64,000 nt of DNA. Origin: Takakia lepidozioides (lineage: Eukaryota; Plantae; Bryophyta). The translations under genes were made by a program, and so were the position numbers. Location: contig CM060731.1 of the NCBI GenBank assembly GCA_030704615.1, positions 22,506,001 to 22,570,000 of the forward strand, written 5' to 3'. The stretch's first letter is position 1; each line of letters begins with the position of its first letter. A model generated the notes under the pieces. It was given only the letters and a program-made list of their open reading frames with translations, ran no database searches and was not told the origin of the DNA. Below are positions 1,131 to 26,602 of this stretch, in pieces.

Positions 1131-1156
1131 GGCGAGCATGTGAGGACCACGGGTGC

Positions 1157-4048: not shown

Positions 4049-4473
4049 GGTATGCCACTATACATGGTGGAGGATATCGTCATGGGGTTCGGAGGTTTAG
4101 CCCTGGTGACTATGTTTATTTGCAGCAGACTGCTCCTACGACTCTGGATGTTACTGCAGGGCGTGTTATTCTGAGGGTTCGAGAGGTGTTGCCCTCAGGG
4201 GTCCTGATCTTGGAGGGTCGGGATGGCATGACTTGGAAGGACCATGTGCGTAATTGTGCGTCATGTCACCTTCCCAATGTCGATGGCAGAGTTGACCCAA
4301 ACTTGGCAGTGGTACCTGCAGGTTTGAGGTGCATGCTTTGTGGGTCTGCCAAAGGGGCAGCCACCATGCTGGTGTGTGATCGATGCTCAAGGGGTTGGCA
4401 TATGGGATGCTTGACACCACCTCTTGAGAAGGTTCCTGACGGAGATTGGTTGTGTCCACACTGCTTGGGATAG
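3890..4473 (+). CDS. Integrase C-terminal region ending in a C4HC3 PHD finger (about 4330-4464)
   Basis: CMLC-x11-CDRC-x4-HMGC-x11-WLCPHC immediately before the stop codon, preceded by an SH3-like FSPGDYVYL module. Confidence 0.9.
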
Positions 4474-4724
4474 TGGCAGTGGACATGACTGGAGGCAGCT
4501 AACAAGACATGGGAGGCCAAGCTCATAGGAGTCAATACATGAGATCCCAAGCTCAAGTTCACAGGTTGCAAGACGGCGACTAATGATGGGGCAACTCTTG
4601 CACCCGTCTATCGAGTTTGAGTGTAGTAGGGATAATGGTGGAGGACTTAGTGAGGCTATGGTCACTATCACATCTTGTGGCTACCTGGACTTAGAAGGAC
4701 CTAAGCACCAGCTAGGGGGGCGAT

Positions 4725-4912
4725 TGTGTGGACTAGTGACTGCCATAGTGGGCAGCATAATGGCAGCCTAGTGACTGACTAGTTGTAGCCTAGTGGTTGG
4801 ACTAGTGGTTGGACTAGTGGTGGACTAGTAGTATACTAGTGTGTGGTGTGCACATGTGTTGTGTGGTTTTGGACAGCGATGTAGTTGTGTAGCGATATGT
4901 ATGCGCACGACA
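4725..4912 (+). repeat. Putative 3' LTR of the DNMT-Gypsy element (short, with internal GGACTAGT-type repeats)
   Basis: TG directly follows the polypurine tract. A candidate end ...GCACGACA at 4912 is followed by a shift to AT-rich sequence. The partner LTR is outside the window, so the right end is unverified. Confidence 0.45.
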
Positions 4913-5941
4913 GTATAAATGGACAAACAAATGTGGAAGACTCGCACTCACTAGAACTTGGTGTGTATAATTATGGTAAAAAAATGAAAATAAAAATGGA
5001 GAAACAAATATTATGGAAGAGTCATTGAGACGGACAAGTATTTAAATTAACGACTCGTCGTTGGAACCTAGTCTTAAGATACATAGAAAGCACACTAGTA
5101 CATAAAATTGATAAGTGCATGTGAATTCAAAACAAACGAGAAAAGTAGCGCAAAAAGGAAGGGAGAAGAGATTTGGATTACCATAAGGTCCATAACCATT
5201 ATTGGTTATGTACATTGGATAGTACAATCATATTTGCAAAAGGAATGGTGAGGGTTTAGGGATAAATGCTTAAGGATCTTTTAGGGTAAAGGGTTTAGGG
5301 GAAAGGGTTTTACTAGGATAAGGGTTTACTAAGGTAGGGGTTTTGGTTTAAGTTAGAAATGGACAAACAAACATGAAAGACCGTTTGTCGCTAGACATAG
5401 ACTCGCTTAGAGGTCCAGGAAAAGGAAGAAAACATGAGAGGTATAAGTTAAGGAGTGACAAATTGAAAAGTGTGGCAATAATGATAGGGTAAGGGTCCTC
5501 TTAGTGGGATACCTCAGTTGGAGACTTGGCTTGAGTCAAGTGCAAGCACTGAGAGACGGACTAGAATTGGCGCAATGACGATACATTGAAAAAAAACATT
5601 TAGACCGGATTGGAAAAGAAAGACTCTAGGGGTTGTGCCAGCATTTTGCTTTTTGGGGTGCATTGTCTGTTTTGTAAGCCAGAATCCCCCACACAAATAT
5701 TTATAGATGAACAGAATGTACAGCAGTGCAGAATCCAGCACGTCAAAAAAAAAAAAAAAATTTGAACGTCCACTACCCACTCGAGGTTCAGTGCGACAGA
5801 AACAAAAAAAACAGGAATGATCCCCCAACGCAAACACGAAGGGAAAAAAGCGTAAAGAATTTTTTTATTTTAAAACAGAGGACCGGAAATCACCTCAACA
5901 TTTAGTCCATGGACTGAAAGTGGTTCACAAGAAGGCAACCT

Positions 5942-8900
5942 TCAGATATCTGGCTGAAGGTTAGCCTCCTCCAAATTCGCGCGCGCCTTCACTGCTTCCA
6001 CCGCTGTAATTCTCTTGGTGCTATTTCTTGTCGTATTTTTTCGTGGCAGCATTGTCCACACGACATTGTTCACGTGGATCCTTGAGCAGGATCTGACGGG
6101 TTGTACTCCCAAACTTTTGATCAGCAGTCCCTGTACCTCTCAAAGTCTGAGGGGTTACCTCTTTTCTTTGGTCTCCACCACTTCACCTTCACTTTCTTAA
6201 AATTAAGATCTTCCCTTTCTCGGATGACATTTAAAATTGTCATTCCCATCCAGACCGGGCACGTCGTTGGGTCATGAAGGCGAACGAGCACAAAAAACCC
6301 TTTCTCAATATCCTTGAACGGATTCAAGGGTATTATTGGACGCTCGCACCTAGGGCCACAGTAAGGTTCTGGAACTTCATCCTCATCTTCCATATCTTCC
6401 AGTATCTGTGGCTGGATGCCATCCCTCCGATGGTTTGAGGACCAATTTGTTTTCGGCCAGAATCCCTCAAGAAGCTGAATACGATCCGGAATGTTCTGCA
6501 TTAGCTTATCAAGTTCAGCAAGAATATTTCCCCAGTATTGGTCGTATTGTTCCATTACACCCCGGTAATGATCGTCAAGCAACATTCCATTGGTCCAAAA
6601 ATCTCTATATTTCTTAATACCATTTTTAATGAAGGACTGTTTTTCGGAGGAGTCGTCCCTGACTCCCCATATCGGTCTTCTTGGAACGGCATCTGGGTCT
6701 ACTTCAGGGAGATTTGGAATCCCATCAGGGTTGGACTTCCACATCTTAACGTTGGAGTTTGTAGGAAGCCACTCCAAATCAGTAGAGCTCTGACTTCTTG
6801 TACTTCATAATGGGCCAGCCATCCGCATTCTTAAAAAACCGAAAGACGTGCATCTCTGAGATCCCGACCAAAGCCTCATTTCCATCAAGAGTACAACCAT
6901 TAACAAACTTCTTGAAGTCGGGAACCTCCTGAATAATTTGAGGAATGAATTGCATATCTTGGGAGATCATGAATGACCTCATCAAATCCGGAAGAATGTA
7001 GGTGTTGCGTTCCTTTAGCTTCTTCGAGAGATAGCTAAAAAATCCGTCAATATCCTCATGGGTGTGCCTGACCATGAGAAAACCAAGCTGGATCTCTTCA
7101 AAGACATCTTTGGCAGTGAGGAGGGATTCTTATTGTCCTTGGAGGAGTTGTCCATCTGCAAATAAAGTCGTTTAGGAAGTGGTCGAGCACCACGTTTATC
7201 TTACGGCCTGTAGGGTTTCAGAGCCTCCAAACATCTCGATTTACCTCTCATGAGCGTTTCAAAAAAATCATTTTGAACTTCATTATCGAAAATGTTCCTG
7301 GATTCCCGACATGTCGGCTTTTCCAGTTGACGCAGGCACTGAGCCAGCGACCCAATTGTGAAGTTTGAATTGTCCTTCCAGAACTCAAGAGAAAATTGAG
7401 CGTAAGCTTCATCACCGTGTCTATGCGTAACCATTCTTGTCAATGAGACAGACAACTGACCTAATCCCGAGACCATCTTGTTCGTCGTCTGTAGCCTCGG
7501 AATAGCCATTTTCCTATTATTCATCTTATCGTGAATAATACACAGGAACTCCTCCGGAATCATAGACTCATTCCTCCAGCTATGGTACAGCCTTCTGCAT
7601 GACTCTTGATGTCTCAAGTGTAATCAAACGCCTGCTTATGTGCGACCTGTTCGGAACTCCTCTTAATTTACTTCTTGATCAAGTCCTTCAACATCTCGCA
7701 TTATGTGCACTTAGCAAAGGTGCTTCCGATTTTCCGAACCTCAGAATAAACACGGTGGTGGCGGCTGAAGTCTGTGCCACTTTTGTCGCTTCCAGCACAA
7801 CATTCACCCTTGTTTTGTTTTGGTTCTGTATACGGCTTACAACTGGCTGCGAGACTTTTTTCAAACCGAGAAGTCTGTTCGTCTGCACCCCAACTCCCCA
7901 ATAATGTCAATGTCCACTGGGCAGTGGAGGTCCTACAAAGTGGAAGAACAAGAAAGCATGATGGCATCAACAAGAATAAAATCAGCCACAGTATTATGAA
8001 AAAAGAAAGGGGACAACGAATAAAAGTCACCTCGTTGGACTCCTCTCAAATTCTCTTCCAGTTCATTTCGGGTGGCAAAATTCTCAAATTATCCCGACGT
8101 CCCTCTCCAATGCAACGTGTTTTGTGAGGCATAAGGTCAATATCGGCATTGATAATGGACATAATGTTCTCCTCTGCCTGGGGTATCCCTGTTCAAGGCC
8201 GCTTGACGCCACGATTTCCGCGGAAAGATGACAAACAACCCTCTTTACTGAGCTTTTTGTACTCCATGTACGTTGACCTTCCAATTTCGTGTATTATCCA
8301 CCATGTTTTCTCACAAACATCAACACCTTCTATCGTAACATACGACCTGCGCGATGCCCCTTCCATAATGTGAAGTCGTTTTGAAACATTCAATCCAAGT
8401 TCTCTCTTCTCATCGAATGACGAACCCCAAAATGTAGTACGAATTGCCAAGGTTTTTCTCCAATCAAAATACTGGCAGCACTGAAGCTTGCAGCAAGGTT
8501 TGCTGCTCACCGACCTCACTTCCTCCAAAGTCAGATTTTTCTTGCATTCTTTTTAGTCCCCCAAATTGGATGTTTTTTTCTTCCTATTAAAATGCCTGTA
8601 TGCTACTTTCTTCACGCCTGTACCATGGTCGTCATTCTCCATGTCACTGCATGATCGCATGAAATTTTCGAGATCAACGGAGAGTATTCGGCCATTTTCA
8701 AGAAGTCTTGTTTTTGTTAACGACCATTTCACAATGGACATCAGATAACCGGATTCTCCAGAGATTGTTCTGGTGACCAAAACCCCAACATCGTCCTCTC
8801 CGAGTTTGTCATTCAGAATGATCTCGTTAGGAATGCATGCCTGAATTCGGCCTTCGAACAGGGCGTTTTCGTCCTCCCCAAGAAGAAGACACTGCAAGTT

Positions 8901-9320
8901 TCTCCAACAATCTCTCCCAAGACCTACAGCCGGATCCTCTTCAGTTTCACCGTTGGACGGAATTTCATTGCTTTCAGTGCTTTGTCCTTGATAATCACTA
9001 TCTTCTGTGATGGAATGACATCCCGGGTTTGTTTGAGATGCTGAATCCACAGTTTCATGCGAGTGAACACAAGAGACATCCCACACAACTAGAGTCCCAA
9101 TCGCCTCCTTCAATGTGTCAGTATCTATGTGTCGATAAGGCAGAGGATAGGAGCTGAATGCGTCATCACAAAAGATCATGGTAACTGAAATGGTAGACGA
9201 ACACAAGTGGTGTTCGTGGCAAGTTCCTTCCCCAGAAACATTTAGGCAATCTCCTGAGGCAACCACTGATGGAGATCCAGGAAGCGACAGAAACACCTTT
9301 TGGCCTACTTGGAGCCCCAT
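5942..9320 (-). pseudogene. DDD/E transposase, Sola/DUF7869-like, with N-terminal Tnp1/En-Spm-like domains; disrupted
   Basis: Fragments read PCCKLQCC..RTTFW..VCEKTWWIIHEI, FAKCT, CIIHDKM, LYLQMDNSSKDNK and FLMVRHTHEDIDGFFSYL. There is an intron at about 7886-8029 and several stops and frameshifts. Likely start is MGLQVGQKV at 9320. Confidence 0.7.
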
Positions 9321-9329
9321 GAATTTAGT

Positions 9330-9353
9330 AACCTCCACTGGGCAGTGGAGGTT
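9330..9353. repeat. 24-bp palindrome AACCTCCACTG-NN-CAGTGGAGGTT (perfect copy)
   Basis: 11-bp perfect inverted arms, 10 bp upstream of the likely transposase ATG. Confidence 0.9.
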
Positions 9354-9603
9354 CAATAAAATCGTATTACAGGAAGGAAGATTAACTGAAGGAAAGAACG
9401 TCGTGCCACCGAAAGGAGGAGTTGAAGTAGAACTTTTTTGACAGTTTTGAATGAGAAAAACAATATGGTTTGAAAAAGTAAAGTCAATGTTTGGATCTAT
9501 CCCGAGACTGATGAAAAACAATTGGATAAAGTGGAGTATAAGGGCGGAATATAGAACAATGTGACTACATCTATCTGAACTATCAGATGAAGTCACAAAT
9601 GCC

Positions 9604-9627
9604 AACCTCCACTGGACAGTGGAGGTT
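9604..9627. repeat. 24-bp palindrome AACCTCCACTG-NN-CAGTGGAGGTT (perfect copy)
   Basis: AACCTCCACTG GA CAGTGGAGGTT. Confidence 0.9.
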
Positions 9628-10406
9628 GGATGATATCTGTTGATGAAATCAACCACATGAATGAACAATGGATACTGAAGAAGCCCTCTGTAGATAAGAA
9701 ATTGATTATAGGGATGGATGAATAATAATGTGGCGACTGCCCAGTGGAGGTTTGGGAGTAACTTTAGACAAACAAAAGCAAGTTTAGTGGGTGCACATGG
9801 AGAGTACAAAAAAAAATGAGTATCATATTATCCTACGTGAGAAATGTGCAGTTGACACCCGAGACTAAGGAAGCAGAGAGAGACTCAGAGGCTGCTTCAG
9901 AAGTACCCTGTGGGCAGAGTGGTGCAGGAAAGGCAAAGAGATGCACGTTGTCAAGAGAGGTGCAGGATGTTCAGAGAGGTGCGCAAGAGAAAAGAAGCAA
10001 GTGAGAGGTTCGCAGTAGGAAGTTGGTGCTGTGTGGAGTCGGACGTTATATAGAGGTGACAAGTAACTTTAATCTTGAATCGCTCCAATGGCAGTGTGGT
10101 ATGTTTTCTCTCCCAGATCGATTGTGGCCACTTTGGATTAAGGCGGAATCGAACGGCTTATTTCAACTCGCGAAATCACGGCTTCATTGAAAGTGTGCAC
10201 AATTTTCCATTTATTGACAGCAGCCATTGTCACATTTAATTATGGAACAAACGATAACAATCGTTGAATTCTATCGTACTTGTACATTAGTAGGACTACA
10301 TGTCTGACATCATTATCGTGCGGCTCTGACAACAGAGTCTGCAATAAGCGTGAAGGATGTCGATTCTGACAAGTGGCCTGGAGAAATGAAGTCATGCGGC
10401 TAATCG

Positions 10407-11017
10407 TGTTATGGACATAGCCCAGAAATTTTTACCAAGAGTAAATACCAGAAGTTATCAAGTTACCATGTTACCGGAAGTTATCTTGACTTACCGTAAT
10501 TTATCATGATCTACCATGATTTACCATTAGTTACCAAGTTACCGGGAGTTTATCAAATTACCAAGAGTTACTTGGGAAACTGCTCATGAAGCTTCTTTTG
10601 GAGGAAACTTCTCCATCAAGATACCTCATTTGTTTAAGGAAGCTTCTCCCATCAAGAAACCTTTATAGAGGAAGCTTCTTAGGGAACTTCTTAATAGCCA
10701 GTATATATAGAAGGCGAGACTGGACACTCTTCAGTCTCGCCAATACCAGTTCAAGCTACTCTTGTTTCCAATTCCCAGTACTCCAGTTCCTAGTACTCTA
10801 GCCCAATTTCCAGTATCTGGTACTCCAGTCCAGTTTCTAGCATTCCAGTATTCAAGTCGTGTTCCAATATCTTGTTCTCTTGTTCATTGTTATAAAGATC
10901 ATCATGATTCATATTTACTCATCATGCATTCGGCCACGCCGACCTTGACTTCTTGTCTAGTCTTATACATCTAGTCTGATCTCTTATTTGTGTTTAGTGA
11001 TATTCTCGTCCTTGACA
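10407..11017 (+). repeat. 5' LTR of the Tcn1-like element
   Basis: TGTTATGGACATAGCCCAGAA...CTTGACA, with TTACCA-type repeats and a TATA-like GTATATATAG at 10701. It lacks a segment present near the start of the 3' LTR. Confidence 0.93.
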
Positions 11018-11055
11018 GTTTGGCGAAACTAAAGTTTGTTCCTTAGTTAGTTAAG

Positions 11056-12081
11056 ATGGAAGACACATTTGCGGAAATGGTCGCTACATTGCAGAGTCTT
11101 GAGCTCCAGATGCAAGAACTTCGTGCCTCTACTGCCCAACTACAAGCTGATCAGTCTCAAGATCTTGGCAACGCTCTCCAACAATTTGCAACAACAAACA
11201 ATGGATCTTCAACCTTACGAGTCCCTACTACAACAAATCCTACTGCAACAGTTCTTCCAAATCTTAAACAAATTACAAGGGAATCAAAAGTCAACATGCC
11301 CGAGAAATTTGATGGGACGAGATCAAGATTTCGTGGTTTTATTCAATAAATGCGATTGTTCCTACGACTACATCCACAACGCTACCCTGATGAAGGTATT
11401 CAAGTGGGATTCGTGGGCACCCTTCTATCAGGTATTGCCCTATCTTGGTTTGCACCGCTATTAGAGAAAAATTCGCATTTACTATACAATTTTGAAGCGT
11501 TCATGTCCGAGTTCACTGCAACGTTTGGAGAGAATGATACAGAGAGAGTTGCAGAGACAAAGATGCGAAATCTTCGACAATGAGCACGTCCAGCTTCCGT
11601 TTATGCTGCCGAATTTTGACAACTTATGTGCGATATCGACTGGAATGAGAAGAGCCTCATTTGTCAGTTTCGATGTGGCCTAAAAGAAGATGTAAAAGAT
11701 TTGTTGCTGACAATGTCAAACGTGAATACACTGAGCGAATTCATCACCCAAGTCATTGCATGTGATAATCGTTTGTTCGAAAGACGTCAAGAGAAGCGAT
11801 TTGGATGGTCGACGATGCACCATGCCGCTGCTACTACGACACCAAACACAATGACCCATCAGACATCCGGTAATGATCCTATGCAGATTGATGTTTTCCG
11901 ATTCAAGCCATTGACGCCACAAGAAAAACAAAGACGGCGCTCGAATGGATTATGTCTTTATTACGGAGAAGAGGATTACATAACATTAAACTGCCCCAAC
12001 AAGAGAAGATTCAAAGCTCGGGGCACAACTCAAGTGTTCGATATGAGGAGGTCGGAAAACGAAGATGTCCAGTCACAGTAA
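11056..12081 (+). pseudogene. gag: gag (in-frame stops)
   Basis: PEKFDGTRSRFRGF, LLSGIALSWF, DPMQID and a degenerate zinc knuckle LCLYYGEEDY..NCP. Confidence 0.9.
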
Positions 12082-12099
12082 AGACCATGTGGCTGGACA

Positions 12100-15000
12100 C
12101 CCCAAATTCCTCACCCAAAAAAGGTCTCTTTCTACCTCCAGACCCTGTACCTTGTTTAAAGATCAGGATGCAAAATTGAGATATCTCCGTAGAAGCACTT
12201 TTGGACTCGGGCGCTTCAGCGTGTTTTATTGACAAAGACTTTGCGAAGCAACACAATTTAACGCTCGTAAGAAAGAAATTCTCGGCCCCTGTTGAAGTCA
12301 TCGATGGACGACCGTTAGCATCAGGAAATATTGACCATGAAACTCGACCCCTTGAAGTGAAGCTTAAAAATCAAGCATCACAGATTGTTTTCAATGTCAT
12401 CCAGTCTCCAACGAATCTTGTGATCCTTGGACTTCCCTGGTTTGTACTTCATAATCCTGACATCGACTAGCGATCACGAAAAATTTCGGCAAGACAAAAA
12501 TGCAAAAGTACCAAAGGTATTCAACCCCTATTTCTTGGAGCTAGAGCCTTCATGAGAGCTACGAAGAAAGACGCGATATTTGCACTTTATGCGACTTCGA
12601 TCAAAACCACAACAGACTAACGTACTTCAACATTACCCACTCAATATCAAGATTTCAAGGATGTCTTCGAGAAGAAAAATGCAGACATGTTGCCAGAACA
12701 TCGACCTTATGATTGTGCAATTGAGTTGCAAGAAGGAGCTCAACCACCATTCGGCCCGATCTACAATTTATCTCAGACGGAGTTGGCTGCTTTACGCGAA
12801 TACATTGATGAAAATTTGTCAAAGAATTTCATTCGACATTCGAAATCACCCGCGGGAGCACCTATCTTATTTGTGAAGAAGAAGGACGGATCGTTACGGA
12901 TGTGTGTGGACTATCATGGGCTCAACAAAGTCACTATAAAAAATTGTTACCTACTACCGCTGATTTCCGGACTCCTCGAACAACTTGGACGAGCAAATTT
13001 TTTCACAAAAATCGACTTGAGATGAGCTTACAACCTTGTACAAATACAAGAAGGAGACGAATGGAAAACTGTTTTTCGCATAAGGTATGGACATTTCGAA
13101 TACAGTGTTATGTCTTTCGGTCTTACAAATGCTCCAGCAATTTTTCAACACATGATGAATGACATCTTTCGAGAATTTTTAGATGACTTTGTAGTCATCT
13201 ATTTGGACGACATTTTGATATTCTCATAGAATGAAGAAAAACATGGTCGCCATGTATGCCTTGTCCTTGATAAATTGAGGGAAAAAAGACTATATGCCAA
13301 GTTGGAAAAATATATTTTCCACCAATCTGAAGTCGAATTTTTGGGCTACATTATTTCCGACAAATGAGTCTTTATGGATCAGAAGAAAATACAAACCATC
13401 ATCGAGTGGATTAAACCAACTTCGGTCCGAGATGTACAATGTTTTCTAGGATTTGCAAATTTCTATAGAATCTTCATCAAGGACTACTCCAAAATTGCTG
13501 CACCATTAACACGACTCACATGGAATAACAAATTTATATGGGACGAGAAGGCTGACCAAACATTTGAAAGGCTGAAGCAGACATTTACAACGGCTCTAAT
13601 ACTGGTACATGCAGACCCATCTAAACCATTTTTTTTGGAAGCAGATGCATCAGACTTTGCACTTGGCGCGGTACACTCTCAATACGTTGCAGATGGCCGA
13701 CTTCACCATGTTGGTTTTCGTTCTTGCAAATTTTCTGCTGCGGAGATCAATCATGAAATCCATGACAAAGAACTTTTAACGATTATCGATGCTTTTGAGG
13801 AGTGACGTCATCTATTGGAGGGAGCTTATAAACATCAGGTCACTGTCTATACCGATAACAAAAACCTCGAGTATTTTATGAGTGCTCGTGTTTTGAATTG
13901 ACGTCAAGCAAGATGGAGTATGTCACTAGCAAGGTTTGATTTTGTTATTACCTACCGTCCCGGACATCTTCAAAGAAAACTAGATGCTCTTTCTCGACGA
14001 TCGTATCTTGCGCCAAAAGAAGGGGATGCAACTTTTGACCAACAGAAATCCATCATCTTCAAACCAACAAATCTCCAATTGAATATGTTATCCATGTCCA
14101 CCTATGACAATGTAGAGATTATAAAGGAGATTCAGGAAGCACTGAAGAGCGACCAATTTGCCACGACATTACGAAGTCAACTAAATTGACCTCGAGACAA
14201 CCCACATGTTACAAATGACTTCGAATTCAAAGATGACTTACTTTATTTCAAGGGACTTCTCTATGTACCACCAGGACCTACACGACTTCGAATTCTTCAA
14301 ATATGTCATGATGTTCCGACTGCAGGACATTTCGGCTTCAACAAAACAATGGAATTGATATCGAGTGACTATTGGTGGCCGTAGATGTGGAAACTCGTGA
14401 AAGAATTTATAAAATTTTGCGACACGTGTGCTAGAGCGAAGGGACCACGACATCGACCTTACGGCCTTCTTCAACCATTACCCATTCCCAAGGGTCCATC
14501 GTCGTCCGTGTCTATGGACTTTATTACGAATCTTCCAATTTCCAATACCACTGATTCAATCCTTGTTATTGTAGATCGTTTTACAAAGATGACACATTTC
14601 ATTCCGTGTAATAAGACGGTTACCGGCGAGGAAACTGCAAGACTCTTCCTCAATATCAAATTTCTGGAGGGGATTATTTCACATATTGGATACTAAGATC
14701 AACCTCTCTACATCTAATCATCCACAGACTGATGGTCAAACCGAACGTATAAACCCAGATTTTGGAACAGTATCTTCGCTGTACGATAAATTATCACCAA
14801 GATAATTGGACGGACCTTCTGTCATTAGCTGAGTTTGCATAAAACAACATCATACATTCTTCGACAAAGCAAACTCCATTTTTCTCCAATTATGGTCATC
14901 ATCCTCGAGCAAACTTTTTCCACATGAAGATTGTTGGAAGCCCTGCTGTAGAAAAACTTGCTACTTATCTTGCTACAATTCACAAGGAACTTACATTCCA

Positions 15001-15512
15001 CCTCGCAGAAGCTCAAAAATAATACAAGGAGTATGCAGATCAACATCGCCAACTCCAACCCCAGTTTAAGGTCGGAGATCGTGTGTGGCTTCTTTGACGG
15101 GACATACAAACCTCGCGTCCATCAAGAAAGTTGGATTTATCAACGCCTGAGACCATTCAAAATTATTTGACAAATAAATCCGGTCAGTTTTCGGCTTGAA
15201 CTCCTACGAAGTATGCACATCCATCCAGTCTTTCATGTTTCATTATTGGAGTTGTATCATCCATCGAATATTCCAGGGAGAGTCTCCGTACCACCTCCAC
15301 CAATCGAAGTCAATCAGGAAATTGAGTATGAAATCGACGAAATTTTAGACTCTCGCATCAAGTATAAACGTCTTGAGTATTTCGTAGATTGGAAATGCTA
15401 CGACATCAGCAAACGAACGTGGGAACCTTCATCCAACCTCGCCAATGCATCTGACAAAGTCCAAGAGTTTCATCAACGATATCCAGCTAAGCCCCGAGCT
15501 ACACGTCAATAA
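12100..15512 (+). pseudogene. pol: pol: protease, RT, RNase H, integrase and chromodomain; many stops
   Basis: [51 protein letters not shown], and the chromodomain EYEIDEILDSR..EYFVDWKCY..TWEP (about 15320-15490). Confidence 0.92.
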
Positions 15513-16116
15513 GACGTCACAATGATGATGTCCGCCAAGTTAGCTTCAAGGTGAAGACTCCACATTCAATATACCTTATACACGTTAAGGAGGGAGGAGC
15601 ACCACACATCAGTATATATAGCTACACTTCCAACACTCTTGCATCTTGTATTGGCAGCATGGAGTCACATGAATCAGATACATTGGAGTTGTCGCTTACC
15701 CAACTACCAGATCAGCCGTTCCGACTCTCACGATCTTCAATATCACGCCGACGCTCTCGAGACGATGGGCCACCAATGCGACGCGTACTTCCTCGTCTAG
15801 ACCCCGTACGACGACAAGTGGAGCCCACTCGAAGTCTGATAATTCTATTGGAGGTTGAGGCTTCGGACCCAGAGGGCAACGAAATTATGTTTGAAGACAG
15901 TTTCGAAAATCAGAATGCTCAAATCACTGCGTGGTCCCCAAGTTCGAGGTGTTGGACACTATTGATGGTTACAGGGACCTATAAATCATTTGAGTCAAGA
16001 ACGAAGAGCCGAGTACTTGACAAGTATCATTCGCCGGATTTTGAATTTTCTCCAACTCTAAGCAAGTCCAAGATTTTACCGCTCCTCGAGGAACTCGACG
16101 CTAGAGGAGGGGGTGA

Positions 16117-16802
16117 TGTCACGGACATAGCCCAGAAGAACGACGAAAATCTGATTGTTATGAAAATCTGATTGTTGCGAAAAAACGTCTCACGATTTTT
16201 CTTCTTCTATCTTTTCCCTTTATATTCTTTACCTACCAGGAATAAATACCAAAAATTACCAAGTTACCATGTTACCAAAAGTTATCATGATTTACCGTAA
16301 TTTATCATGATCTACCATGATTTACCATTAGTTACCAAGTTACCGGAAGTTTACCAAATTACCAAAAGTTACTTGGGAAACTGCTCATGAAGCTTCTTTT
16401 GGAGGAAACTTCTCCATCAAGATACCTCATTTGTTTAAGGAAGCTTCTCCATCAAGAAACCTCTATAGGGGAAGCTTCTTAGGGAACTTCTTAGTAACCA
16501 GTATATATAGGAGGCGAGACTGGACACTCTTCAGTCTCGCCAACACCAGTTCAAGCTACTCTTGTTTCCAGTTTCCAGTACTCTAGCCCAGTTTCCAGTA
16601 TTTGGTACTCCAGTCCAGTTTCCAGCATTCCAGTATTCAAGTCGTATTCCAATATCTTGTACTCTTGTTCATTGTTATAAAGATCGTCTGGATTCCTATT
16701 TACTCATCATGCATTCGGCCACGCCGACCTCGACTTCTTGTCTAGTCTTGTACCTCTAGTCTGATCTCTTATTTGTGTTCAGTCATGTTATCGTTCTTGA
16801 CA
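16117..16802 (+). repeat. 3' LTR of the Tcn1-like element
   Basis: TGTCACGGACATAGCCCAGAA...CTTGACA, a direct repeat of 10407-11017. Confidence 0.93.
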
Positions 16803-19143
16803 AATCGCCACAACTAATTCTAGACTGCACATTAACAATCGATCATTATAAGCTGGGAGAAATCCGGAGATGAACCATAAAACACTTTGAGATTTTTCTG
16901 TTTATATTTATCATGCTGTTACAGTGAATAAAACACTTGGGCAGGGCGGGGTATTACACGCCGGCGCATTGCATTGGACAGCGAGGGCGGTGCATTACAG
17001 ATGTACGGAATGCTCTGTCGTGCCTTGCTTGCTTGCACATGTTTAATGTAGGGATGGACCCCTCGTGTCGGGTATCCCTTGATAAATGGGCAGTCCCTAT
17101 GGTGGTTCTGGACCTTAAATCGAAGAATACCCGACACGAGGGGCCATCTACTATCCTTAAAGCCGTATGTCACATGACACTTGCGGGTGTTGTCAGGGAA
17201 TATTGACGCCTAGCAGCTAACAGCCGAAAGTGATTGTGGACGGCTCATAATGAGACAATGATTATACAGTGTGATGAATCCGTAGGTACAGCGATGTGTC
17301 CTCTGGCAGATTGTGTTCGAAATGACTGCCTAGGCGTGCCACATGGGTGGTCACATGTGCGTATAGGGCGTGGGTTAAGGTTTGGCGGCTTCGAATCTAT
17401 TTTAAGATTTTTGTAAGCGTGAGGGTTGTAGAGTCTGACCAATGGCGTCATTACAGTCATTTCGTCCTTTATTCATTTGTCTGTCCAGTCGTCTGTCCAT
17501 TAAACGTGTGTGCATTCGTCTGTCAATTTGGAACAAAAGTTGAACTAATTTCATCTGTGTGGATGGACAATATTAATGTTAGTTTGCGTGGATGGGGCAG
17601 AACATCCATTTGGGCCGCGCGACCGTTTGATTTCGGACAGAGGCGATGGTTCAGAATCATCCTTGAAGGTCGCTTATAAGGGGTGCGCTCTTTGAGCCCG
17701 GCCTTTGGGCTTCCCATTTTCTACGCGTAAGCGTTGCGCGAGTGAGAGCTTGATAGTTGAGAGAGGAGAGCGTGAAAGAGAAGAGTTTTGGAGCGCGTTT
17801 TGCAGCAACTGGACACTGGAACGTGGAAAGAAAGAGAGCAGATTTGGCCAAGCGCAGAGAGAGGAGAGGATAAAAGGTGAGAGAGTGAAATAGGCAAAAT
17901 TTGAAGAGCGGGGAGGAGAGACAAGACAGTGGCGAGTGGAAATTGACGAGTGCAGAGGCGATATCACAGTGCAATTACCGGCAGGCGGAGATGCGGAAGA
18001 GAGTATCAAACGAAGGACTGTGGTTGCAGGAGCACCAAAATGGCCGGCACAAGCAGGTACAACATTGAAAACTCCATCTTTTCATCTTCTGTTTCATGTT
18101 TTGTGTTGGCCTGTTCTCAATTCATGTGTCGGCCTGTTATCAGTTTTGTATTGGCCCGCTCTCGATTCATGTAACCTGTTCTCGATTCAATTCGTTTGGA
18201 TCCTGCTTCATTCTATGCTGCATTGCACTTTCTTCAGTGCACTCTCATCTCTGCTTCAGTGCTTCAGTCCGTGCTTCAGTGCACATTAGGTTTCTGTTTC
18301 ATTGTCTGCTTCGTTGTTTGCTTCATTCCTGCTTCATTCTCTGTCAATTCATTTCAATCCTGCTCCATTCTGTGCTTCAGTGCACTCCTGCTTCATTGCT
18401 TCAATGTTGTTTTTCAATTCACCGATGGTTTGTAGGGTGGTTTTGTGTGCAATATGGTTTGTGTGTGCTTGTTTTGGTCGATTAGGGTAATGGTTTAGGG
18501 TGGCGGGAGATTATCGTGCTGGTTGTATTGCTTGTTTTGTTCATTGTGGTACGTGGTTTTTTGAAGACAATGGTTTCGGAAATGTCCAGATGTTTATTAC
18601 TCAACCGTTTTCTTGATCCCCAAATCCAGCGTTAGTTTGTTCTTGTCAATCAATAGTTGATGCATTTCTTCCCATTCAAATTCGATTCTGAATGGAAATT
18701 TTTATTTCTTATTCAATTTTGTCGAATTTGGCAATTATGAAAAACCCACGATAGCCTAGTCTACTTGTATTCTACAGTAGACATAGGCTAACAGTAGGCT
18801 TCGTGCAGGCCATAGTAGACTATTTGTAGACCCATGTCATGCACATGAGGAACAAAAAACTGGAACCTCCATTGCCCAATAGAGGTTCACATGAATTCTG
18901 TATGGGGAAGCTGAAAGACATTTTTTTAAAGTAAGGACGAAATCGGATAATTCCGGGAAAAATGAAAATCAGTGTGAGACGATGTAGGAACGAGTGATGG
19001 AATCATATGTGTAACATTGTAAGTGTGAGACATACTTTCCAACGAAACTGGAATACGATAACTGGGAACCTCCACTATCCAGTGGAGGTTCAATATTTCT
19101 TTGGGTCAGCGAGTTACACACTCTGATTATTTTTTCTGTCAGT

Positions 19144-19818
19144 ATGAGAAAGAGGAGCGTGGGTGGGGAACCGGTGTCTGACGATGAGTACAAGACCGTC
19201 AGCTTAAAGTGGAGCAAGAGACGGTGTTCGGTAGACGTGATGGAAGCAGACCATCCAGATCAATAACATGGTGTTTTGGAACCAGATGAAAAATCCAGTT
19301 GGGGGTCTACCGAGCCGAACAAAGTGTTTGGGATTGATGAAAATGTGACTGTAGAATCCCCGCGAAACGCAGCTGAATCTCCCAACAATAGACCTCAAGA
19401 CTACTCCACAGATACCCTAGTGGAAATAAGAGATACCCTGGCGGAAATAAGAGATAGCCTTCATGAAAACAATGATGTCAACGGATCTCCTGCCTACTCC
19501 CAAGATTATCTGACATATACCCCTCCAGACTATTCCCCGGACACATTGGCGGCGATACGAGAGACCGTTTTTGGATTTCCCGCATCTCCGGGTTACTCGC
19601 CGGCATTTCCTGAATCCACAACAGGATCTGCAGGATATTACCCTCCAAACTTTTCCCTAGACACTGCAACGAGACCGGGAGTCCTGGAACTCTAGGACGT
19701 CTCCGGATCTCCAGGATACTCCCCTACGTCTCCTGATAGTGTCACCAGATCCCCGAAATATACCCCTCCAGACTATTCGTCTGATACACTCAGGGAGATC
19801 AAAAGGAGCATTTTGTAG
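19144..19818 (+). pseudogene. Small Ser/Pro/Tyr-rich protein with RNA Pol II CTD-like heptads (two in-frame stops)
   Basis: ATG follows a GT-AG intron (19019-19142). One frame runs through TAA at 19264 and TAG at 19693 and contains SPAYSQD, PDYSPD, SPGYSPAFP, SPGYSPTSP and SPKYTPP. Confidence 0.55.
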
Positions 19819-20050
19819 TTCTTGGGGTACATAACCTAGACTCGTCTGAATATAATAGACGAAGTCTGCGCGAGAAGTCCCTGAGTATTTTTTGGAGGAA
19901 TTAGGTTAAGAGATTTCATTTGTAGATTTGTCATGTTTCAGGATGATGTATTCAGTGGTTCCTGAGCCTCATTTTCATTAAAGTTTCTTTCTACAACATC
20001 TGTATAATAGGGAAGATTTCCGCTTTCATGTAGAAAGCCTCATACATATG

Positions 20051-20074
20051 AACCTCCACTGTCCAGTGGAGGTT
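20051..20074. repeat. 24-bp palindrome AACCTCCACTG-NN-CAGTGGAGGTT (perfect copy)
   Basis: AACCTCCACTG TC CAGTGGAGGTT. Confidence 0.9.
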
Positions 20075-21180
20075 CCTATATATGGAATGATGGATGCTAG
20101 TAAGAGAGATCTTGTTATTTTATTATCTAATGAATTTGTGTTTGGTTGTAACAGAAGACATCCCACGCCACCAGATTGCGTCCCGGGATTGATTGGAGAT
20201 ATTTGTGGCGCATTCATATGCCAGAAGTCCTCAAATTTCAAAACTGACCATACCGCAATTTTTGAGCTGAACCCAGAGGTGACAGATTGGGGCATCGTCC
20301 TTGTGGATACACCCCCTGATCACAAGCTGTCTTTTCATTACAGAAGTCTTGGAGTAATAACAGACTTAAAATACGCAGAAGCTCTCAATATAGAGCTTGA
20401 ATCTGAAGAGGAAAACCCGATGTTGGTTTTGTTCCTGTATGAGGATGCGAGAACCCCCAGGACGTTTGGTTTCAAAATGGAGGTGGGTCATCTGAATAAG
20501 TCGTTGATGAGTGAATGCATTGGACTGGGTTTTAGATTTCCCGACGAGGGCTCAGTATTTACCGACGTAGGTTTGTCGAGGGCCTGGAGTATTTTTCTGG
20601 ATCTTCTGCACGCAATGGGGAACGACATTCGCAAGAAGTGAGCACTAGAGGAAGCATCGAAGCCGAAGAAGGGAAAACGCAAGTCGTCGACAGCCGGCAA
20701 TGATGAGAATGAGGCCGGGACTTCTGCAGGAAAGAAGAAACAGAAGGAGGATCAGGATCCAACATGGATGACAGATAACAAAAGACCTAAAACTGGGGAG
20801 ATTTTCGACAAGGAAAAGTGAAGATGGAGGAGAGGCTCACGAAGGAATACAACGACGTATTTCCGTTTGGATTCGAGAGTACCTTCCTTGTGAAGGTTTC
20901 CATGATGGAACTAGCTCCAAGGAGCATGGTTTACAGGCCGTTAAATATCAAGCATAAGGACGAAGTGAAAGCGTGACTCTTCCAGCTTCATTTGTTCGAC
21001 TCCAAACATCCGGAGTATCTTGCGCCAATCAACCCTTCCAATCCCGAGAAGATTGCTTCATCGCGATCGAAGCAATGGAAAGAAATAGACGTATCCAGGT
21101 TCTTCATCATTGGTGGACAACACACCATCGTGGCCACAAAGGTAATGGACTTCATTTCCACCCAGCCCTCTCTTTTAACG

Positions 21181-21204
21181 AACCTCCACTGGGCAGTGGA
21201 GGTT
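21181..21204. repeat. 24-bp palindrome AACCTCCACTG-NN-CAGTGGAGGTT (perfect copy, intronic)
   Basis: Lies inside the predicted intron 21142-21223. Confidence 0.9.
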
Positions 21205-23769
21205 GGTGTTCCCACTCCTGAAGCTATCAAAGCTCCTCAATGATCCCAATAAGGCGCAAAAATTTAATACAACAATGCCGGAGAAAGTTGCGCATGCGCG
21301 AATGTTATTCAACCTGAGGGGGAAGCCAAAGAAATACAACCATCACACCACCAAGTCCGAGACGAAACAATGGAAGGTATGCATTTATGGAATGAAAATC
21401 TACTATTCACCTTCATTTTATGCTAAAGAATACTTCTGTTGTCGGAGTGACACATAATTTTTCCGTGGATGAATATGCAGGAGTTCATGTTTGCCTGTCA
21501 TTTGATACTTGAAATTGGTAGCACTAAGGAGACAATGGTCCTGGTACTTTGCGACGACGACATTTGGAAGATCTGGGAAGATGTGTTCAAACGCTGGGAG
21601 CAGGGAAAGCTTCTCGACCCGCTTGGGATACAGTACAAGGGTGAACAGCAACAACTCACGAAATCCGCTTCGTCAATACAATTTTTGAAGATGACTCTGT
21701 GGTATTTGAGGCCAATGACTATGTGAACATACTGGAAGCTTTTGTGGCTCGGAAAATGAACATGAGTGCTTTTGTTTTCTTATCGACTCAACCGTCCTCG
21801 GGCAATCTGGTCTCCTACATCCAAAATGGTCCCAGAAGAACATTGTATCTTGTCCGGCAGGGATTTGATGTTCCGGGGGAGTATGAAAATGTTTACAAAA
21901 ATAGCACGAAGACTTTCTCTCGGACTATCCTGTGCCTGGACTACGTTTTCCAAGCGACACTTGAGGAGATGCAGAATCTGGACGAGCACATCGCGACAGT
22001 GTACTTAATTGAGCCAATTCAGCCGATTCTTGAAGGGCCTTCTGGGAAGCCATCAGCTTTTGAAGAAGAGTGCAAGATTTATAATCATGAGCTACGAGGT
22101 GACACCTACGACTATTTGGCCTCCCTGTTTTGTCGAGACGGGATGTCTGCTGTCAACATCTTCGGAGGCGTGATGTTGACGTATGCCCTTCATGTAAGTG
22201 TAAAACATGTTTGCATTTTAAATACGATTTTTACATTTTTGATCGAACACGTCCTCTGTTTTACTGACTGGGATTTATCTGCAGGCAAGAAACATTTGAG
22301 TGCTTGACATCAACCACTCAACCAAAAAAATATTTTGCAAAAGAAAAGTTGAAGGAAATTTTAAGAAGCTTCAAATTGAGAATGACAATGTTGCTGAAGA
22401 GGTTGACGGCGAAGACGATGATGAGGATGAGGAAGTGGAGGATGAAGATTTGGAAGAAAGATGAGGACATTCCGAACACAGGGAGGAGGAGGAGGGCATC
22501 GAAGGTAATGAGGACAATGAGGGCCACAATGGAAACAATGCAGACCCTTGGGGGGCTGGACACCTTGATTTGATTCAGGACTTCAGAACTCAGTCACTGG
22601 ATAGACTTGAGAACACCACGGAAGATGGTGCGGTCCCCAAGGTCGTGATTCGGGACGGGGATTCGAGTTCAAGCGAGAGAACTAAGAATAATCCTCCTTC
22701 ACCCTCAAGGGATGCCGAGGCCAGCTCAATCGAGGTGGGCCGAAATCTTGTTCGGAGTGCAGAAGACTGGTTCAAACCTGTAGAAGGGGATGAGCCGGCG
22801 CCAATGTGTAGAGAGAGCGAGGACAAAGAGCCTATGTCCCACAAAAGACAACAAACACAAAGCGAGGACTAAGAGCCCGTCTCCTGCAAAACGGGACAGT
22901 GGTGACAAAGCCAGGACTAAAAGCCCGTCTCTCGGAAAAAACAGGGGAGGCAGAGGTCGGACTCAAAGCCCAACTGACTCTCAAAGTGTCTCCGAACATG
23001 TCAATGTGGATGTAGGTAACGAATGATACCTAGAGATTTATGGCGTCTTTAAGTATTTTAAATGAAACAAATTGTGTGTTGCATCTGGTTGTGTTCTGGT
23101 TGTGTTTTTGACAATAGCTAATCTGTATTTTGATTTTTGTTTGTCGTCATCTTCCCACCTTCTTCAACTTTACATGTGACTGACGGTTACGAAAACTCAT
23201 ATAGATCCATGAATGGAAATTGGAGGAAATTACACAAACCCGGACAGAATCCATCGCGACTCAAACAGTGAGGAGGCAGGTGGACTTAACAATCAGGGTC
23301 AGCCAACCTGATCTGGTCATACAAGCAACCTCCACTGTCTAGTCGACGTTGCGAGATGGAGGAAATGAGTCGGAGATGGTCGTTGCTCAGCGTGAAGGAA
23401 AGAGATGGAGTAGCCACAGCGGAATCCCTCTCCGAAACGGGTATACACTACATAACCATCTTAGAAATGTTCTTCTTTGTCCTTCTTCTAGTTTTCAAAA
23501 CGAATTAATTGTTCTGTTATTCCACATGATGATATGATTCACCCTCCAATCGACTATCACCAATCTGTGAACCCACATGATTAGTATCGCCTTTCTGAGG
23601 GACCGAATGGATGTCGACCAGGATACTACGTCCTGGTCCTTGACGTCGGTTACCTTGGTGAGGTATACCTCCGAGATGGCTCGAGATCCCCTCCCGCAAC
23701 CCATCTTTGTGTATGCGCTGGAAAATTATGGGGTAAGTCTGAAACTGATCAAGCATTTGAGAAGCTCAA

Positions 23770-25010
23770 GGTAGCTCTTACCACTGTCCATGTGCTCGTT
23801 TATCCTGACTTTAGTCTACTTTTCTTACTTCAAATAAATGCTAGTGATCTAGCTGTCTCTGCCATTTTGAGCCAGGTACTTCAAGACGCCTGGACAAACA
23901 TGAATGAAATTACAGTATCACAGACAATGAAGGCTTGGCTGTCATTTTCGGGGTCAAACATTTTAGGCAATACTTACATGGTTGTCATTTCTCTGTTGAG
24001 ACGGATCACCTTCCTTTGAAGGCCCTCAAGACGCCTCGAGAATTATTTGGTCGGCTTGCTCGTTGGTCACTCATACTACATGGATTTGAGTATGATATAG
24101 TCTACAAAGAATGCAAGGAAAACAACAATGCAGATGCACGTCTGACCCGTACTGAAACTAAAATTCCTACATCTTATCTCATCTTGGATGACTTGTACGT
24201 ACCTTAGGACATAGCTGTTAAAAGGGCAGCAACAGTAGCTCCTTCTGCTCAAACTTTCCACAACCTTTTAGATGAGCTCCCACGCTCTATGGATTTGCAG
24301 TCCAATTGGGATCTCATCAGCTTTGCTGTTGGCTAAATTCTATCGTGTGTTGGTGTGTGTGGGAGTATGGTTTGTGTAGATCAGCTCAGACATGCTCTCT
24401 TTCCTTTGCAGCTCACTGTTCTTGTTGAACATGGTGCCTTTTCTTGTTGAATCCTTTCCCTGGAACTAGTACTTCAAGGACCATGCTGTGATGACGAAGA
24501 TCCAGAATGTGGTGCAGTAGTCATTGCAGGAGCTCATTGAGGCGGGCACTCCTGTCAACCTATAACTAACCCACTGTTATTGGGCCATGTCTAGAACATA
24601 GTCGATTGATGATTGCATATATGCAACCTTGCTCCATAAGTGCAAGACCGACACTCAGCTTCCTGGCCGCATTGCCAAGGCTACTCAGCGGCAAATTTCC
24701 TATCATTTTCCCTATCATGAGGAGCGTGAAGGCAAATTGTTCTCAAGATAATTGTTTTGGAAGGTCTCACTCATGCTATGGAGGTTCCAAGTATGAGTTC
24801 ATTACCTGCTTTGCTGGAACTCTTTCATGCTTCAACATATGCGGGTCACCTTGGTGTGACCAGAACCATCAAACGGTTACATGAGGTATACACATGGAAA
24901 GGAATGACCCGGGATGTCTCAGACTTCATTGCTAAATGTGTTGAATGCCACGCCAAAACTTTGCTCCCTAGAGCTCGAGCTTCGAGCTTTACCTCACAGA
25001 ATCTTATTTC
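23770..25010 (+). pseudogene. Highly degraded Gypsy pol remnant (RNase H and integrase zinc finger)
   Basis: LVYPDFS..LQINASD, GVKHFRQYLHG..VETDHLPL..GRLARWSL, FHASTYAGHLG..WKGMTRDV..CVEC. Confidence 0.75.
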
Positions 25011-26602
25011 TATCATTGAGTTATGTTCGATGGATATCTCCCGAAAGGTTGTTCTTGTCAATTTTAAAATTGCTCAATCCAAACATATTGGTATACCCTC
25101 CGGAAGATTGTTAAGTTCTATCATTCTTTAAATTGCATAACATCCAAACAAATATGTTTAATACCTTACGGAAGGTTGTTTCCAGTGTTGGTATGGTATT
25201 TGGGTTTCGCCAGGCATCAACCCGGGTCTCTCCTAACCTAACCTACTGTTCTCTGTTCCCCGTAAACATTTGTACTACCCTACCATAAGGTTCTTGAGTT
25301 CTCTGGCGGTCCCCCAAACCCTAACAGGCGGCGGTTAGGGTTCTCCTTTCCCCGCCCCCTACCAGAGCTCGACTCATAGCTGCAGGTCTGTTCGGGTATC
25401 ATGTTAAGATGCACATATAGACATTATGGATGTAGGGTTTCATATGTTTATGAGCGCCTCTTTATGATCTTCATTTGCGAGACACTATGGATGCAATTGA
25501 TTCAGTGTATAATTGTATGGGGGTCGGTATCCTATGAGATGAGCAGGTTTCCTTGTGGTTTTCTTGAATGTTCAAATGGCTATTTGAATAGTTCAGATGG
25601 CCATTTCAATATTGAATTTGAATTTGAATTCCAGTACCATTTTTATTTTATTATTATTTAATACCACATCCGAGTTCATATTTCTAGGTTATTGACGTTC
25701 AGATACCATTGCTCATATCCGGATTGATTTTTTTCAAAAACCACTCTATGCATACCAAATTCATACTTTAAAAAATCAGGGGCTGCATTATTGGAAAACC
25801 TACCTGCCTTAAAAAAATTCAGAACGGCATACCAGGACCCTTCTGGTATTTCCAATTCAAGATACCAGACCAACACTGGTCATGCTTGATGTATACATGC
25901 GGGACAGTTGTTCATTGCTCAATCGAAATGATGATTGGTGTACCTTCTGGACGATTGTTTCTATCATTTTTCAAATTACATAAAATCCAAACAAATATGC
26001 TTAATAAGGGCCTTATGGAAGAGTGTTTTTACCATTAGGTCATGCTTGACAGATACTTGCTGGAAGGTTGTTCATGTCAATTTTAAAGTTGTTCAATCCA
26101 AATATGTTAGAGTACCCTCAGGCTGGAAGGTTGTTCCTATCATTTTACAAATTGCATAAGTGGGAAGTAAGGGCGCTGGGCATGCGAGGGCCGGGGAACG
26201 GTTGTCGTCGGGCGTTGACGTAAACAGTGATGGACGCTCGTCCGGATACTTGTCCGAAATCCTATCCGGGGGAGATGTGCACCACAAATCGCAGCCTTGC
26301 TATGAAAACACAACAAGAGAAACGAGACAAATGACGATTGCAGGAGCAAGCTGGGGAATGCAAATGGTTTTGAGGACCCTGACAATCACAAGAATTACCA
26401 CAATCTAGTAAGACGTGGTGTGTATGACAGGCTGACAAACCGAGAGATGGAGGCAGGTGTTTGCAGCTCAGTGAATGACTCCTTACACCCAAACAGATCT
26501 CTTCCCCTGAAAAACCCCCTGGGAAGCTCTCAAACCTTCTTACAATGCGAGACCAGTTGTAGTACTCATGGGATGGGCTCCCCGGTATACAGAACAGCAG
26601 CA

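Follow-up and report, generated by a model that had tools for sequence, protein, structure and literature searches.

The family of a decayed transposon accessory gene in Takakia lepidozioides shows profile likeness to ParB/DndB-like and amino-methylase domains

The design considered here, a transposon accessory protein with a ParB-like front that would load onto its own element and mark it, has been published before, for giant transposons of algae (2025). In the 21.5-kb Ectocarpus Sola-1 transposon Sola1-1_Ec32, the gene opposite the transposase encodes a protein of 1,104 residues that comprises a ParB-like domain and an N4/N6 methylase domain, and for which the authors propose binding to, and modification of, the element that carries it (PMC12477816). 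PAG3, of a red-algal giant Plavaka (EnSpm/CACTA), joins a ParB-like domain to a 2-oxoglutarate (2OG) oxygenase and has inverted-repeat arrays beside it, as described in the Bostrychia preprint (bioRxiv 10.1101/2025.02.11.637652). Two further papers describe chlorophyte Dam-type methylases fused to a helix-turn-helix of the ParB type (Iyer et al., PMC4738411) and ParB-N6_N4 methylase fusions that are common in phages (PMC12704722), the latter in agreement with a first-pass annotation of the locus studied here. We analyzed 64,000 nt of Takakia lepidozioides (assembly GCA_030704615.1, contig CM060731.1, positions 22,506,001-22,570,000, forward strand; hereafter the window), in which a broken accessory gene lies in a DNA transposon with a DUF7869 transposase gene.

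We consider it likely, at a probability of about 0.6, that this gene is a dead accessory gene of the ~12-kb DUF7869 transposon and that its family derives from a fusion of a ParB/DndB-like domain with an N6/N4 amino-methylase and would bind the palindromes of its own element. In the likely ancestor, a ParB/DndB-like domain of prokaryote type would have been joined to an N6/N4 amino-methylase of the beta class; the ParB-like front may recognise the palindromes and would bring the methylase-derived part to the DNA of the element, where it could mark the element for its transposase or shield it from silencing. Since the intact relatives lack the phosphate-binding arginine, a canonical DPPY and FxGxG, site binding would be expected as the conserved activity, rather than clamping driven by nucleoside triphosphates or methyl transfer.

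Like Sola1-1_Ec32, the window element is a large DNA transposon in which a second gene runs opposite to the transposase, and the protein of its family would likewise consist of a ParB-like part and, behind it, a part resembling N4/N6-type methylases. Compared by description, the two differ in that the domains are recognisable in Sola1-1_Ec32, whereas here library models stay below threshold and the hallmark motifs are degenerate. Furthermore, Sola1-1_Ec32 has AACCG..CGGTT termini and a 282-bp imperfect terminal inverted repeat, whereas the ends of the window element are only approximate, and searches of it found neither a terminal inverted repeat nor palindrome half-sites at the ends. PAG3 resembles the window gene in being a transposon accessory protein whose N-terminal domain is ParB-like, in that most copies are degenerate, and in its nearby inverted repeats, which in PAG3 are taken as likely binding sites. 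It differs in its oxygenase, which stands in place of a methylase-like end, in its transposon superfamily, and in its repeats, which form tandem arrays, whereas the window palindromes are single and spread through introns and spacers. The prokaryotic and phage ParB-methylase fusions share with the window family the domain order, with a ParB-like front and a methylase-like part behind it, and the position of the motif X-I block at the C-end, and DndB shares the GQH core of its DGQHR motif. Unlike these fusions and DndB, the window family is a eukaryotic gene with introns that has Ser/Thr for Arg, no DPPY and no FxGxG; it also has long extra regions, namely N-terminal repeats, a ~480-residue middle exon and an acidic and coiled tail. 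Its degree of divergence and the loss of the hallmark motifs are what is particular to it. A literature search linking Sola1 and ParB found only the Ectocarpus paper (PMC12477816).

The accessory gene and the DUF7869 transposase gene form one mobile unit and lie on opposite strands (Table 1). Other copies were represented by contigs from the public sequencing runs X1, X2, X3, X5 and X6, four of them for the accessory-gene stretch, and depth at a base was summed over these contigs, per run. Summed X1 depth was ~4,000-10,000 and even across 5464-10111 and 17416-24055, and went down to 62 at 24056-24700, a roughly hundredfold fall beyond 24056. One X2 contig links 4912 to ~23515, and contigs match the window identically from 23617 onward. 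The family is highly repeated, with 574 contigs of X1 alone placed on 2 kb of the window. Because other copies read position 10401 straight into 16803 (two contigs in X2, one each in X1, X3 and X5), the arms ~4913-10401 and 16803-~23514 are one ~12-kb element. Among family models, the transposase piece matched only DUF7869 (PF25273; E 1.7e-21 at 6782-7129 and E 1.1e-5 at 7018-7200, both on the - strand), and no paper naming DUF7869 was found in a literature search. Its core is ~45-51% identical to the long transposase frames of two loci described below, L003 and L002. These matches, the even depth over both arms and the 10401/16803 joins bear out the earlier placement of the gene in a transposon.

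Intact relatives of the gene were reached through the transposase. Of 104 candidate proteins from public sets, 6 were relatives of the DUF7869 piece at E up to 1e-5. A scan of prokaryote genome assemblies with an alignment of relatives returned 11 loci; the two best (L002, L003) lie on short contigs from two metagenome-assembled genomes (MAGs) and are long transposase frames that lack introns. The MAGs that hold L002, L003, L016, L017 and L021 are labelled cyanobacterial and acidobacterial. Because other contigs of the same MAGs carry spliced genes, we take these contigs to be eukaryotic DNA binned into bacterial MAGs; GT-AG introns were seen in L003, L016, L017 and L021, and eukaryote-type transposase frames in L002 and L003. 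On L003, a 9.6-kb contig, transposase, palindromes and accessory gene end stand together: the contig holds the final 82 residues of an accessory-gene homologue on the strand opposite its transposase, and the window's exon 3 after the deletion matched it at 39.6% over 48 residues (tblastn, E 2.7e-5).

A two-row profile (A2) found open frames of 486 and 500 amino acids in the other of the two MAGs, G002 (E 4e-12 and 3e-11), and a third contig of this MAG, L021, carries a 32%-identical paralogue, while a query with the N-domain had zero matches in nine other MAGs (G001, G003-G010). The G002 gene is split by GT-AG introns into three exons, visible as open frames of 509, 486 and 419 residues. The ratio of nonsynonymous to synonymous substitution rates (dN/dS) between its copies L016 and L017 was 0.14, 0.12 and 0.25 for exons 1-3, indicating that the protein is under purifying selection. 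Hidden Markov models (HMMs) of the family, built without the window row and applied to the complete set of 2,532 six-frame window pieces, gave as best pieces 20977-21240 (E 3.6e-4), 21179-21454 (E 0.079) and, for HMM B, 21451-21723 (E 0.012). Since the models choose the window's three exons as best, in order and on one strand, the window gene is a member of the family. An intron at the position of intron 3 is also present in L003, L016 and L017. Altogether, intact homologues with the same intron positions stand beside related transposases elsewhere. A homologous-protein search with pieces of exon 1 found none, tblastn against phage genomes gave chance matches only (E 3 and above), and zero matches came from metagenome collections scanned with the window protein and with the palindrome and from a viral contig collection scanned with the transposase alignment. 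Downstream of the accessory gene, L017 has a further open frame of 284 residues (1368-2219, - strand) that contains VVFDLNGILCACE, which we take to resemble a phosphatase motif of the HAD/FCP1 type.

The N-domain of the family has three blocks: an Arg block (...IRAFE... or ...VYRPLN...), (I/L)I(N/G)GQH(S/T)V.A, and W.aY(I/V)V.s.D..KL..IS.FYN..NH. Comparison of its alignment (A5) with 30 cyanobacterial DndB sequences by hhalign gave a probability of 41% and P 2.8e-4 over 88 columns, with the Arg block on the DndB Arg block and GQH(S/T) on DGQHR. Against nine ParB_N sequences, P was 0.007 over 18 columns, in which only GQHS.AAS fell on GERR.RAA. The DndB score of 35.1 lay above those of all shuffles, 124 by column and 124 by block (maximum 23.8), and the reversed alignment scored 11.9. 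In profile comparison, the N-domain thus appears to resemble DndB/ParB, and the earlier equation of GQHT with the GxRR/DGQHR position agrees with this register, in which the upstream Arg motif also falls into place.

At the C-end, the family reads Y.ELEYRVHNTELTMEFYLRVLSAWCQTGDKVVSVYAGSKILNAAL, an intron and then, in L016, MKGLQCFCICENDAQQSY, and the window equivalent is NHELRGDTYDYLASLFCRDGMSAVNIFGGVMLTYALH, an intron and ARNI(R)VLDIN. The PF01555 set consisted of 16 sequences from 21 loci, after two fragments, one sequence with a stop and two of more than 520 residues were dropped. Against this set, hhalign gave the family C-part a probability of 70% and P 4e-5 over 52 columns, in a register that puts H.xEL...GD.V...F/YxG on HPxxKP...GD.VLDPFxGSG, i.e., motif X and then motif I. 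None of 127 column or 127 block shuffles reached this score (maximum 26.5 vs 40.0), and the result was unchanged without the window row (P 4.4e-5). Five cross-controls, in which the N-domain was compared with the methylase set, the C-part with the DndB and ParB_N sets, and each query with the DUF7869 alignment, were flat (P 0.34-0.52). Furthermore, PF01555 was the sole Pfam family found on the 500-aa L015 frame (E 0.033, profile positions 135-192 of 221). These profile comparisons suggest that the C-end resembles methylase motifs X-I.

The palindromes of the window (Table 1) were sought at up to 3 mismatches, which gave 8 matches vs 0.00 expected from 100 shuffles; with transitions tolerated, the same 8 were found and 0 in 20 shuffles. 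The ninth copy has its right half-site at 9742. None was found outside the two arms, in the nested retrotransposon or the rest of the 64 kb, and the copy at 21181 sits between two accessory-gene exons. The relatives have palindromes of their own, TTCAGCTCGAnTCGAGCTGAA for L016-type and TTTATCCTCGAnTCGAGGATAAA for L021-type proteins, so that protein and palindrome vary together across lineages, with palindromes in and around the gene in each. Lineage-matched palindromes are what a protein-site pair would look like, and the transposase is an equally possible binder. One may go further and propose, tentatively and with the odds against it, that the family is a selected DUF7869-transposon protein without hallmark motifs whose palindrome changes along with it by sublineage as a private protein-site 'address system'. 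If true, such a system would let each transposon family distinguish itself at the DNA level from related families, to the benefit of transposition or of the evasion of silencing. The three sublineages, with different palindromes and proteins that are 32-84% identical, constitute a natural swap experiment on specificity, and if the protein binds the palindromes of its element, these transposons carry a borrowed bacterial site-and-binder module.

Several results weigh against a ParB-methylase origin of the family. With a limit of E 10, the window exons matched no ParB, DndB, DGQHR or methylase model of Pfam, NCBIfam, PHROGs or PADLOC, the intact 509-aa L016 frame had no ParB model match in Pfam, profile searches of PDB sequences returned no ParB and no methylase, and PDB sequence searches with the window exons gave nothing relevant. 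The PF01555 match of L015 stayed below the cut-off (14.6 vs 26.7 bits) and has no parallel in L014, whose frame is near-identical. Only 52 of 221 methylase positions were aligned, all in the last quarter of the profile. The A2 profile had marginal matches to VPS28, in its helical N-end (E 0.0059), and to a pentatricopeptide repeat (PPR) protein (E 0.12), and since these overlap the 'motif X' helix, the C-end stretch may be a plain helical hairpin. The hallmark residues are replaced: for the Arg of GxxR/DGQHR, the window has the Thr of GGQHT, and L016, L017 and L021 have the Ser of NGQHS, and FxGxG gives way to FGGVM in the window, YAGSK in L016 and L017 and FCGQK in L003. A canonical (D/S/N)PP(Y/F/W) was seen neither in the window, where the region is partly deleted, nor in L016 or L017, and G002 has only 'ADPYF'. 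The DndB match weakened to P 0.006 when the alignment was reduced to the three intact rows, and the window sequence alone gave P 0.07 for the N-domain and P 0.42 for the C-part. Single-sequence AlphaFold2 models of exon 1 and of 21672-22193 had predicted local distance difference test (pLDDT) values of 34.8 and 32.3, i.e., no usable fold. The first-pass annotation, which had called the protein ParB-like with a degenerate amino-methylase end, therefore finds no backing in the window sequence by itself and gains it, in the register that it had noted, once homologues are added; its remark that no DPPY/SPPY is visible in the window holds, and motif IV, looked for in the intact relatives, did not appear there in canonical form.

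These same points feed the most serious alternative, which we consider unlikely: that the gene is an orphan transposon open reading frame unrelated to ParB or methylases, that the motifs are chance, and that the palindromes are transposase sites or small hairpin insertions. Every direct family and structure-sequence search was negative, phmmer with the 183-residue C-part had 0 matches in 1.84 billion representative proteins, the likeness of this C-terminal stretch extends to helices of VPS28 and PPR proteins, and the hallmark residues are absent. However, chance would have to produce two independent domain likenesses that follow known ParB-methylase fusions in order and register, exceed every one of the 248 and 254 shuffles and have flat cross-controls, along with PF01555 as the sole Pfam match on one intact homologue and an architecture that is in print for a Sola-1 element.

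It is decidedly improbable, in our view, that the family is an active ParB-methylase that puts N6-methyladenine or N4-methylcytosine on the element after palindrome loading, with loss of function in the window copy. The likeness to PF01555 lies at the end that binds S-adenosylmethionine and includes an acidic residue that ends the next strand (CICE(N/A)D in relatives, VLDIN in the window), purifying selection is strong across the whole protein, and the Ectocarpus protein is a precedent in print. However, the YAGSK/FCGQK of the intact relatives, their missing (D/S/N)PP(Y/F/W) and the alignment of the last quarter of the methylase profile alone argue against it. Finally, a C-terminal domain of another kind (e.g., a 2OG oxygenase as in PAG3, or a structural one) behind a genuine ParB/DndB-like front would accord with PAG3 and with a ~480-residue middle exon most of which has no detectable relative, but it is the least probable of all, given that Pfam reports no oxygenase family at E up to 10 and that the best and sole specific signal of the C-part is PF01555.

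For the preferred reading, a degenerate ParB-methylase descendant, the window copy is a dead relic and has value only as a pointer to the family. As the family shows, divergence can put such accessory genes beyond the reach of Pfam, so surveys of domain hits will undercount them.

Table 1. Features of the transposon and its accessory gene in the window, with the palindromes of related loci
Feature	Position	Strand	Remarks
Likely 5' part of accessory gene	19144..19818	+	ATG 19144; three PPDYSxDTL-type repeats; put in the same gene by frame and strand
Upstream exon	20155..20818	+	161-residue region of no recognised kind and basic linker; frame of 19982
ParB/DndB-like segment	20824..21141	+	Arg motif MVYRPLN; GGQHT at 21112-21126
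Intron remnant with palindrome 21181-21204	21142..21214	+	GT at 21142; 5' part of next exon lost
Exon with third conserved N-domain block	21215..21376	+	LLKLSKLLNDPNK ... ARMLFNLRGKP
Intron 2	21377..21480	+	GT..AG; frames join 21376 to 21481
Exon 3, first part	21481..21669	+	contains VLVLCDDDIWKIWEDVFKRWEQGKLLDP; stops at deletion junction 21669|21670
Exon 3 after deletion	21672..22193	+	last 49 codons (22047-22193) are the methylase motif X/I-like block NHELRGDTYDYLASLFCRDGMSAVNIFGG
Intron 3	22194..22284	+	GT..AG; 1 base longer than in other copies covering the intron
Exon 4	22285..22461	+	ARNI-(TGA; CGA in other copies)-VLDIN, then acidic tail
Palindrome AACCTCCACTG-NN-CAGTGGAGGTT, 24 nt, nine copies	7909..23350	.	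in both element arms
Palindrome copies	7909, 9330, 9604, ~9729, 18864, 19067, 20051, 21181, 23327		left arm of copy at ~9729 decayed
L016 palindrome TTCAGCTCGA-n-TCGAGCTGAA or near variants			6 copies; before gene, in both introns, behind gene
L017 palindrome, L016 type			7 copies; in and around gene
L003 palindrome, L016 type			5 copies; upstream of transposase frame
L021 (diverged paralogue) palindrome TTTATCCTCGA-n-TCGAGGATAAA			4 copies; one between exons, three upstream
Repeated DNA-transposon-like element	4913..23514 (approx.)	.	~12.2 kb without nested insertion; ends approximate
Nested LTR retrotransposon, not part of element	10402..16802	+	long terminal repeat (LTR) pair and empty-site contigs
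Transposase gene remnants (DUF7869, PF25273)	6121..9827	-	transcription diverges from accessory gene

The accessory gene probably spans ~19144 to at least 22461 on the + strand of the right arm. The first-pass annotation had confined it to 20821..22320; the four-base insert of other copies and the ATG at 19144 extend it on this account. Some other copies have four extra bases (GCGA or ATGC) behind 20817-20819, and since these bring the frame 19982-20818 in register with 20824, the ATG at 20824 is not the start; the frame series upstream of the accessory exons opens at ATG 19144. In-frame stops interrupt the 5' part at 19264-66 and 19693-95, and three PPDYSxDTLxEIR-like peptide repeats at 19383-19814 (direct repeat family D2) are likely an N-terminal part; they have no counterpart seen in the G002 relatives. 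The upstream exon carries an in-frame TGA at 20639-41 and had no family match in Pfam, NCBIfam, PHROGs or PADLOC, and its 161-residue region gave 0.86 to unnamed clusters in the ESM Atlas, with neighbours at chance level.

In the ParB/DndB-like segment, which is collinear with the intact homologues in alignment, VKVSMMELAPRSMVYRPLNIKHKDEVKA, FFIIGGQHTIVATK, VKVSMMELAPRSMVYRPLN and FFIIGGQHT are in frame. The stretch 21224-21376 holds LSKLLNDPNKAQKFNTTMPEKVAHARMLF in frame and reads LSKLLNDPNK...HARMLFNLRGKP, its exon aligns to LQRISKFYNDTNH ... RRIWLNSGRP of the homologues, and YNHELRGDTYDYLASLFCRDGMSAVNIFGGVMLTYALH is in frame and ends at 22193. Sequence and translated frames thus place every peptide quoted in the first-pass annotation on the + strand, in frame and where it had been reported, and the GT..AG boundaries of introns 2 and 3 agree with its call of an intron-containing gene. 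The frame of exon 4 continues to 22869 past another TGA at 22462-64, and relatives have (M/I)K/C..Q.FCICE(N/A)D at the ARNI/VLDIN place. Base 22273, in intron 3, is absent from other copies (10 contigs in X1, 7-8 in X2, 3 in X3).

Comparison with other copies showed that the window accessory gene is a dead copy, with at least two private CGA>TGA stops, a four-base deficit and two internal deletions. At the in-frame TGA of 20974-76, base 20974 is C in other copies (X1, depth 3146 of 3702, 6 contigs; all in X2, X5 and X6), and at that of 22297-99, base 22297 is C in 13280 of 13280 (X1, 22 contigs) and 2519 of 2729 (X2). Because nearly all other copies read C, both stops are private CGA>TGA changes. 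As for the first deletion, one X5 contig departs from the window at 21145 and another rejoins it at 21215, reading ...KIVWSTDEQR, which matches YVVWSTDPLKLQR (YVVWSTD) of the relative L021. Since another copy has this coding sequence just before 21215, part of an exon is missing from the window there, and a reading of 21142-21223 as a clean intron was rejected for the same reason. At the second, other copies leave the window at 21669|21670 with loose contig ends (four in X1, two in X2 with a median of 114 letters, 2+1 in X5, one of the X5 contigs arriving from the other side), and the reading frame shifts at this point; the deletion formerly placed near 21700 is therefore real and lies at 21669|21670. 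Among the X1 majority differences from the window, 447 of 798 are A>G or T>C, indicating that the window copy decayed mainly by C>T and G>A. A 5,983-base contig from a run guessed to be RNA belongs to a diverged relative; it retains additional letters at intron 1 and is shorter by roughly the size of intron 2, and we draw no conclusion from it.

Three further candidates in the accessory gene were dropped. A likeness of the 183-residue C-part to 14-3-3 proteins stood at 0.82 in the ESM Atlas, which is chance level, and the match of YNHELRGDTYDYLA in PDB reached only E 0.4. No family search backs motif IV, for which WGIVLVDTPPDH in the upstream exon had been considered, and the placement of 'TVYLIEPIQPI' on 'idlivtdPPyni', the top local match of the window alone, fell with its P of 0.42.

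Other insertions lie in and around the element. The LTRs of the nested retrotransposon (10433-11017 and 16234-16802) are 90.9% alike over 585 nt, and this retrotransposon is roughly 10-50 times commoner in the runs than its host element. Near the left end, 622 bases at 4956-5577 are skipped by other copies (one contig each in X3 and X5) and are probably a further small insertion in the window copy. Directly right of the element, 23585-25128 holds fragments of a gypsy-type element (RNase H, integrase zinc finger), and depth is at a low-copy level past 24056. DNA methyltransferase-carrying retrotransposons are already known. On the left side, the window has one at 258-4912, an LTR retrotransposon in whose coding region a domain of cytosine-5 DNA methyltransferases comes first (PF00145, E 1.1e-12 at 258-1223), followed by a 900-residue reverse transcriptase/RNase H/integrase frame that ends in a Cys/His-rich stretch like a plant homeodomain (PHD) finger at 3709-4473. 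Methylase-carrying retrotransposons are the topic of a 2026 preprint. The 3' end of the retrotransposon in the window, at 4912, is very highly repeated.

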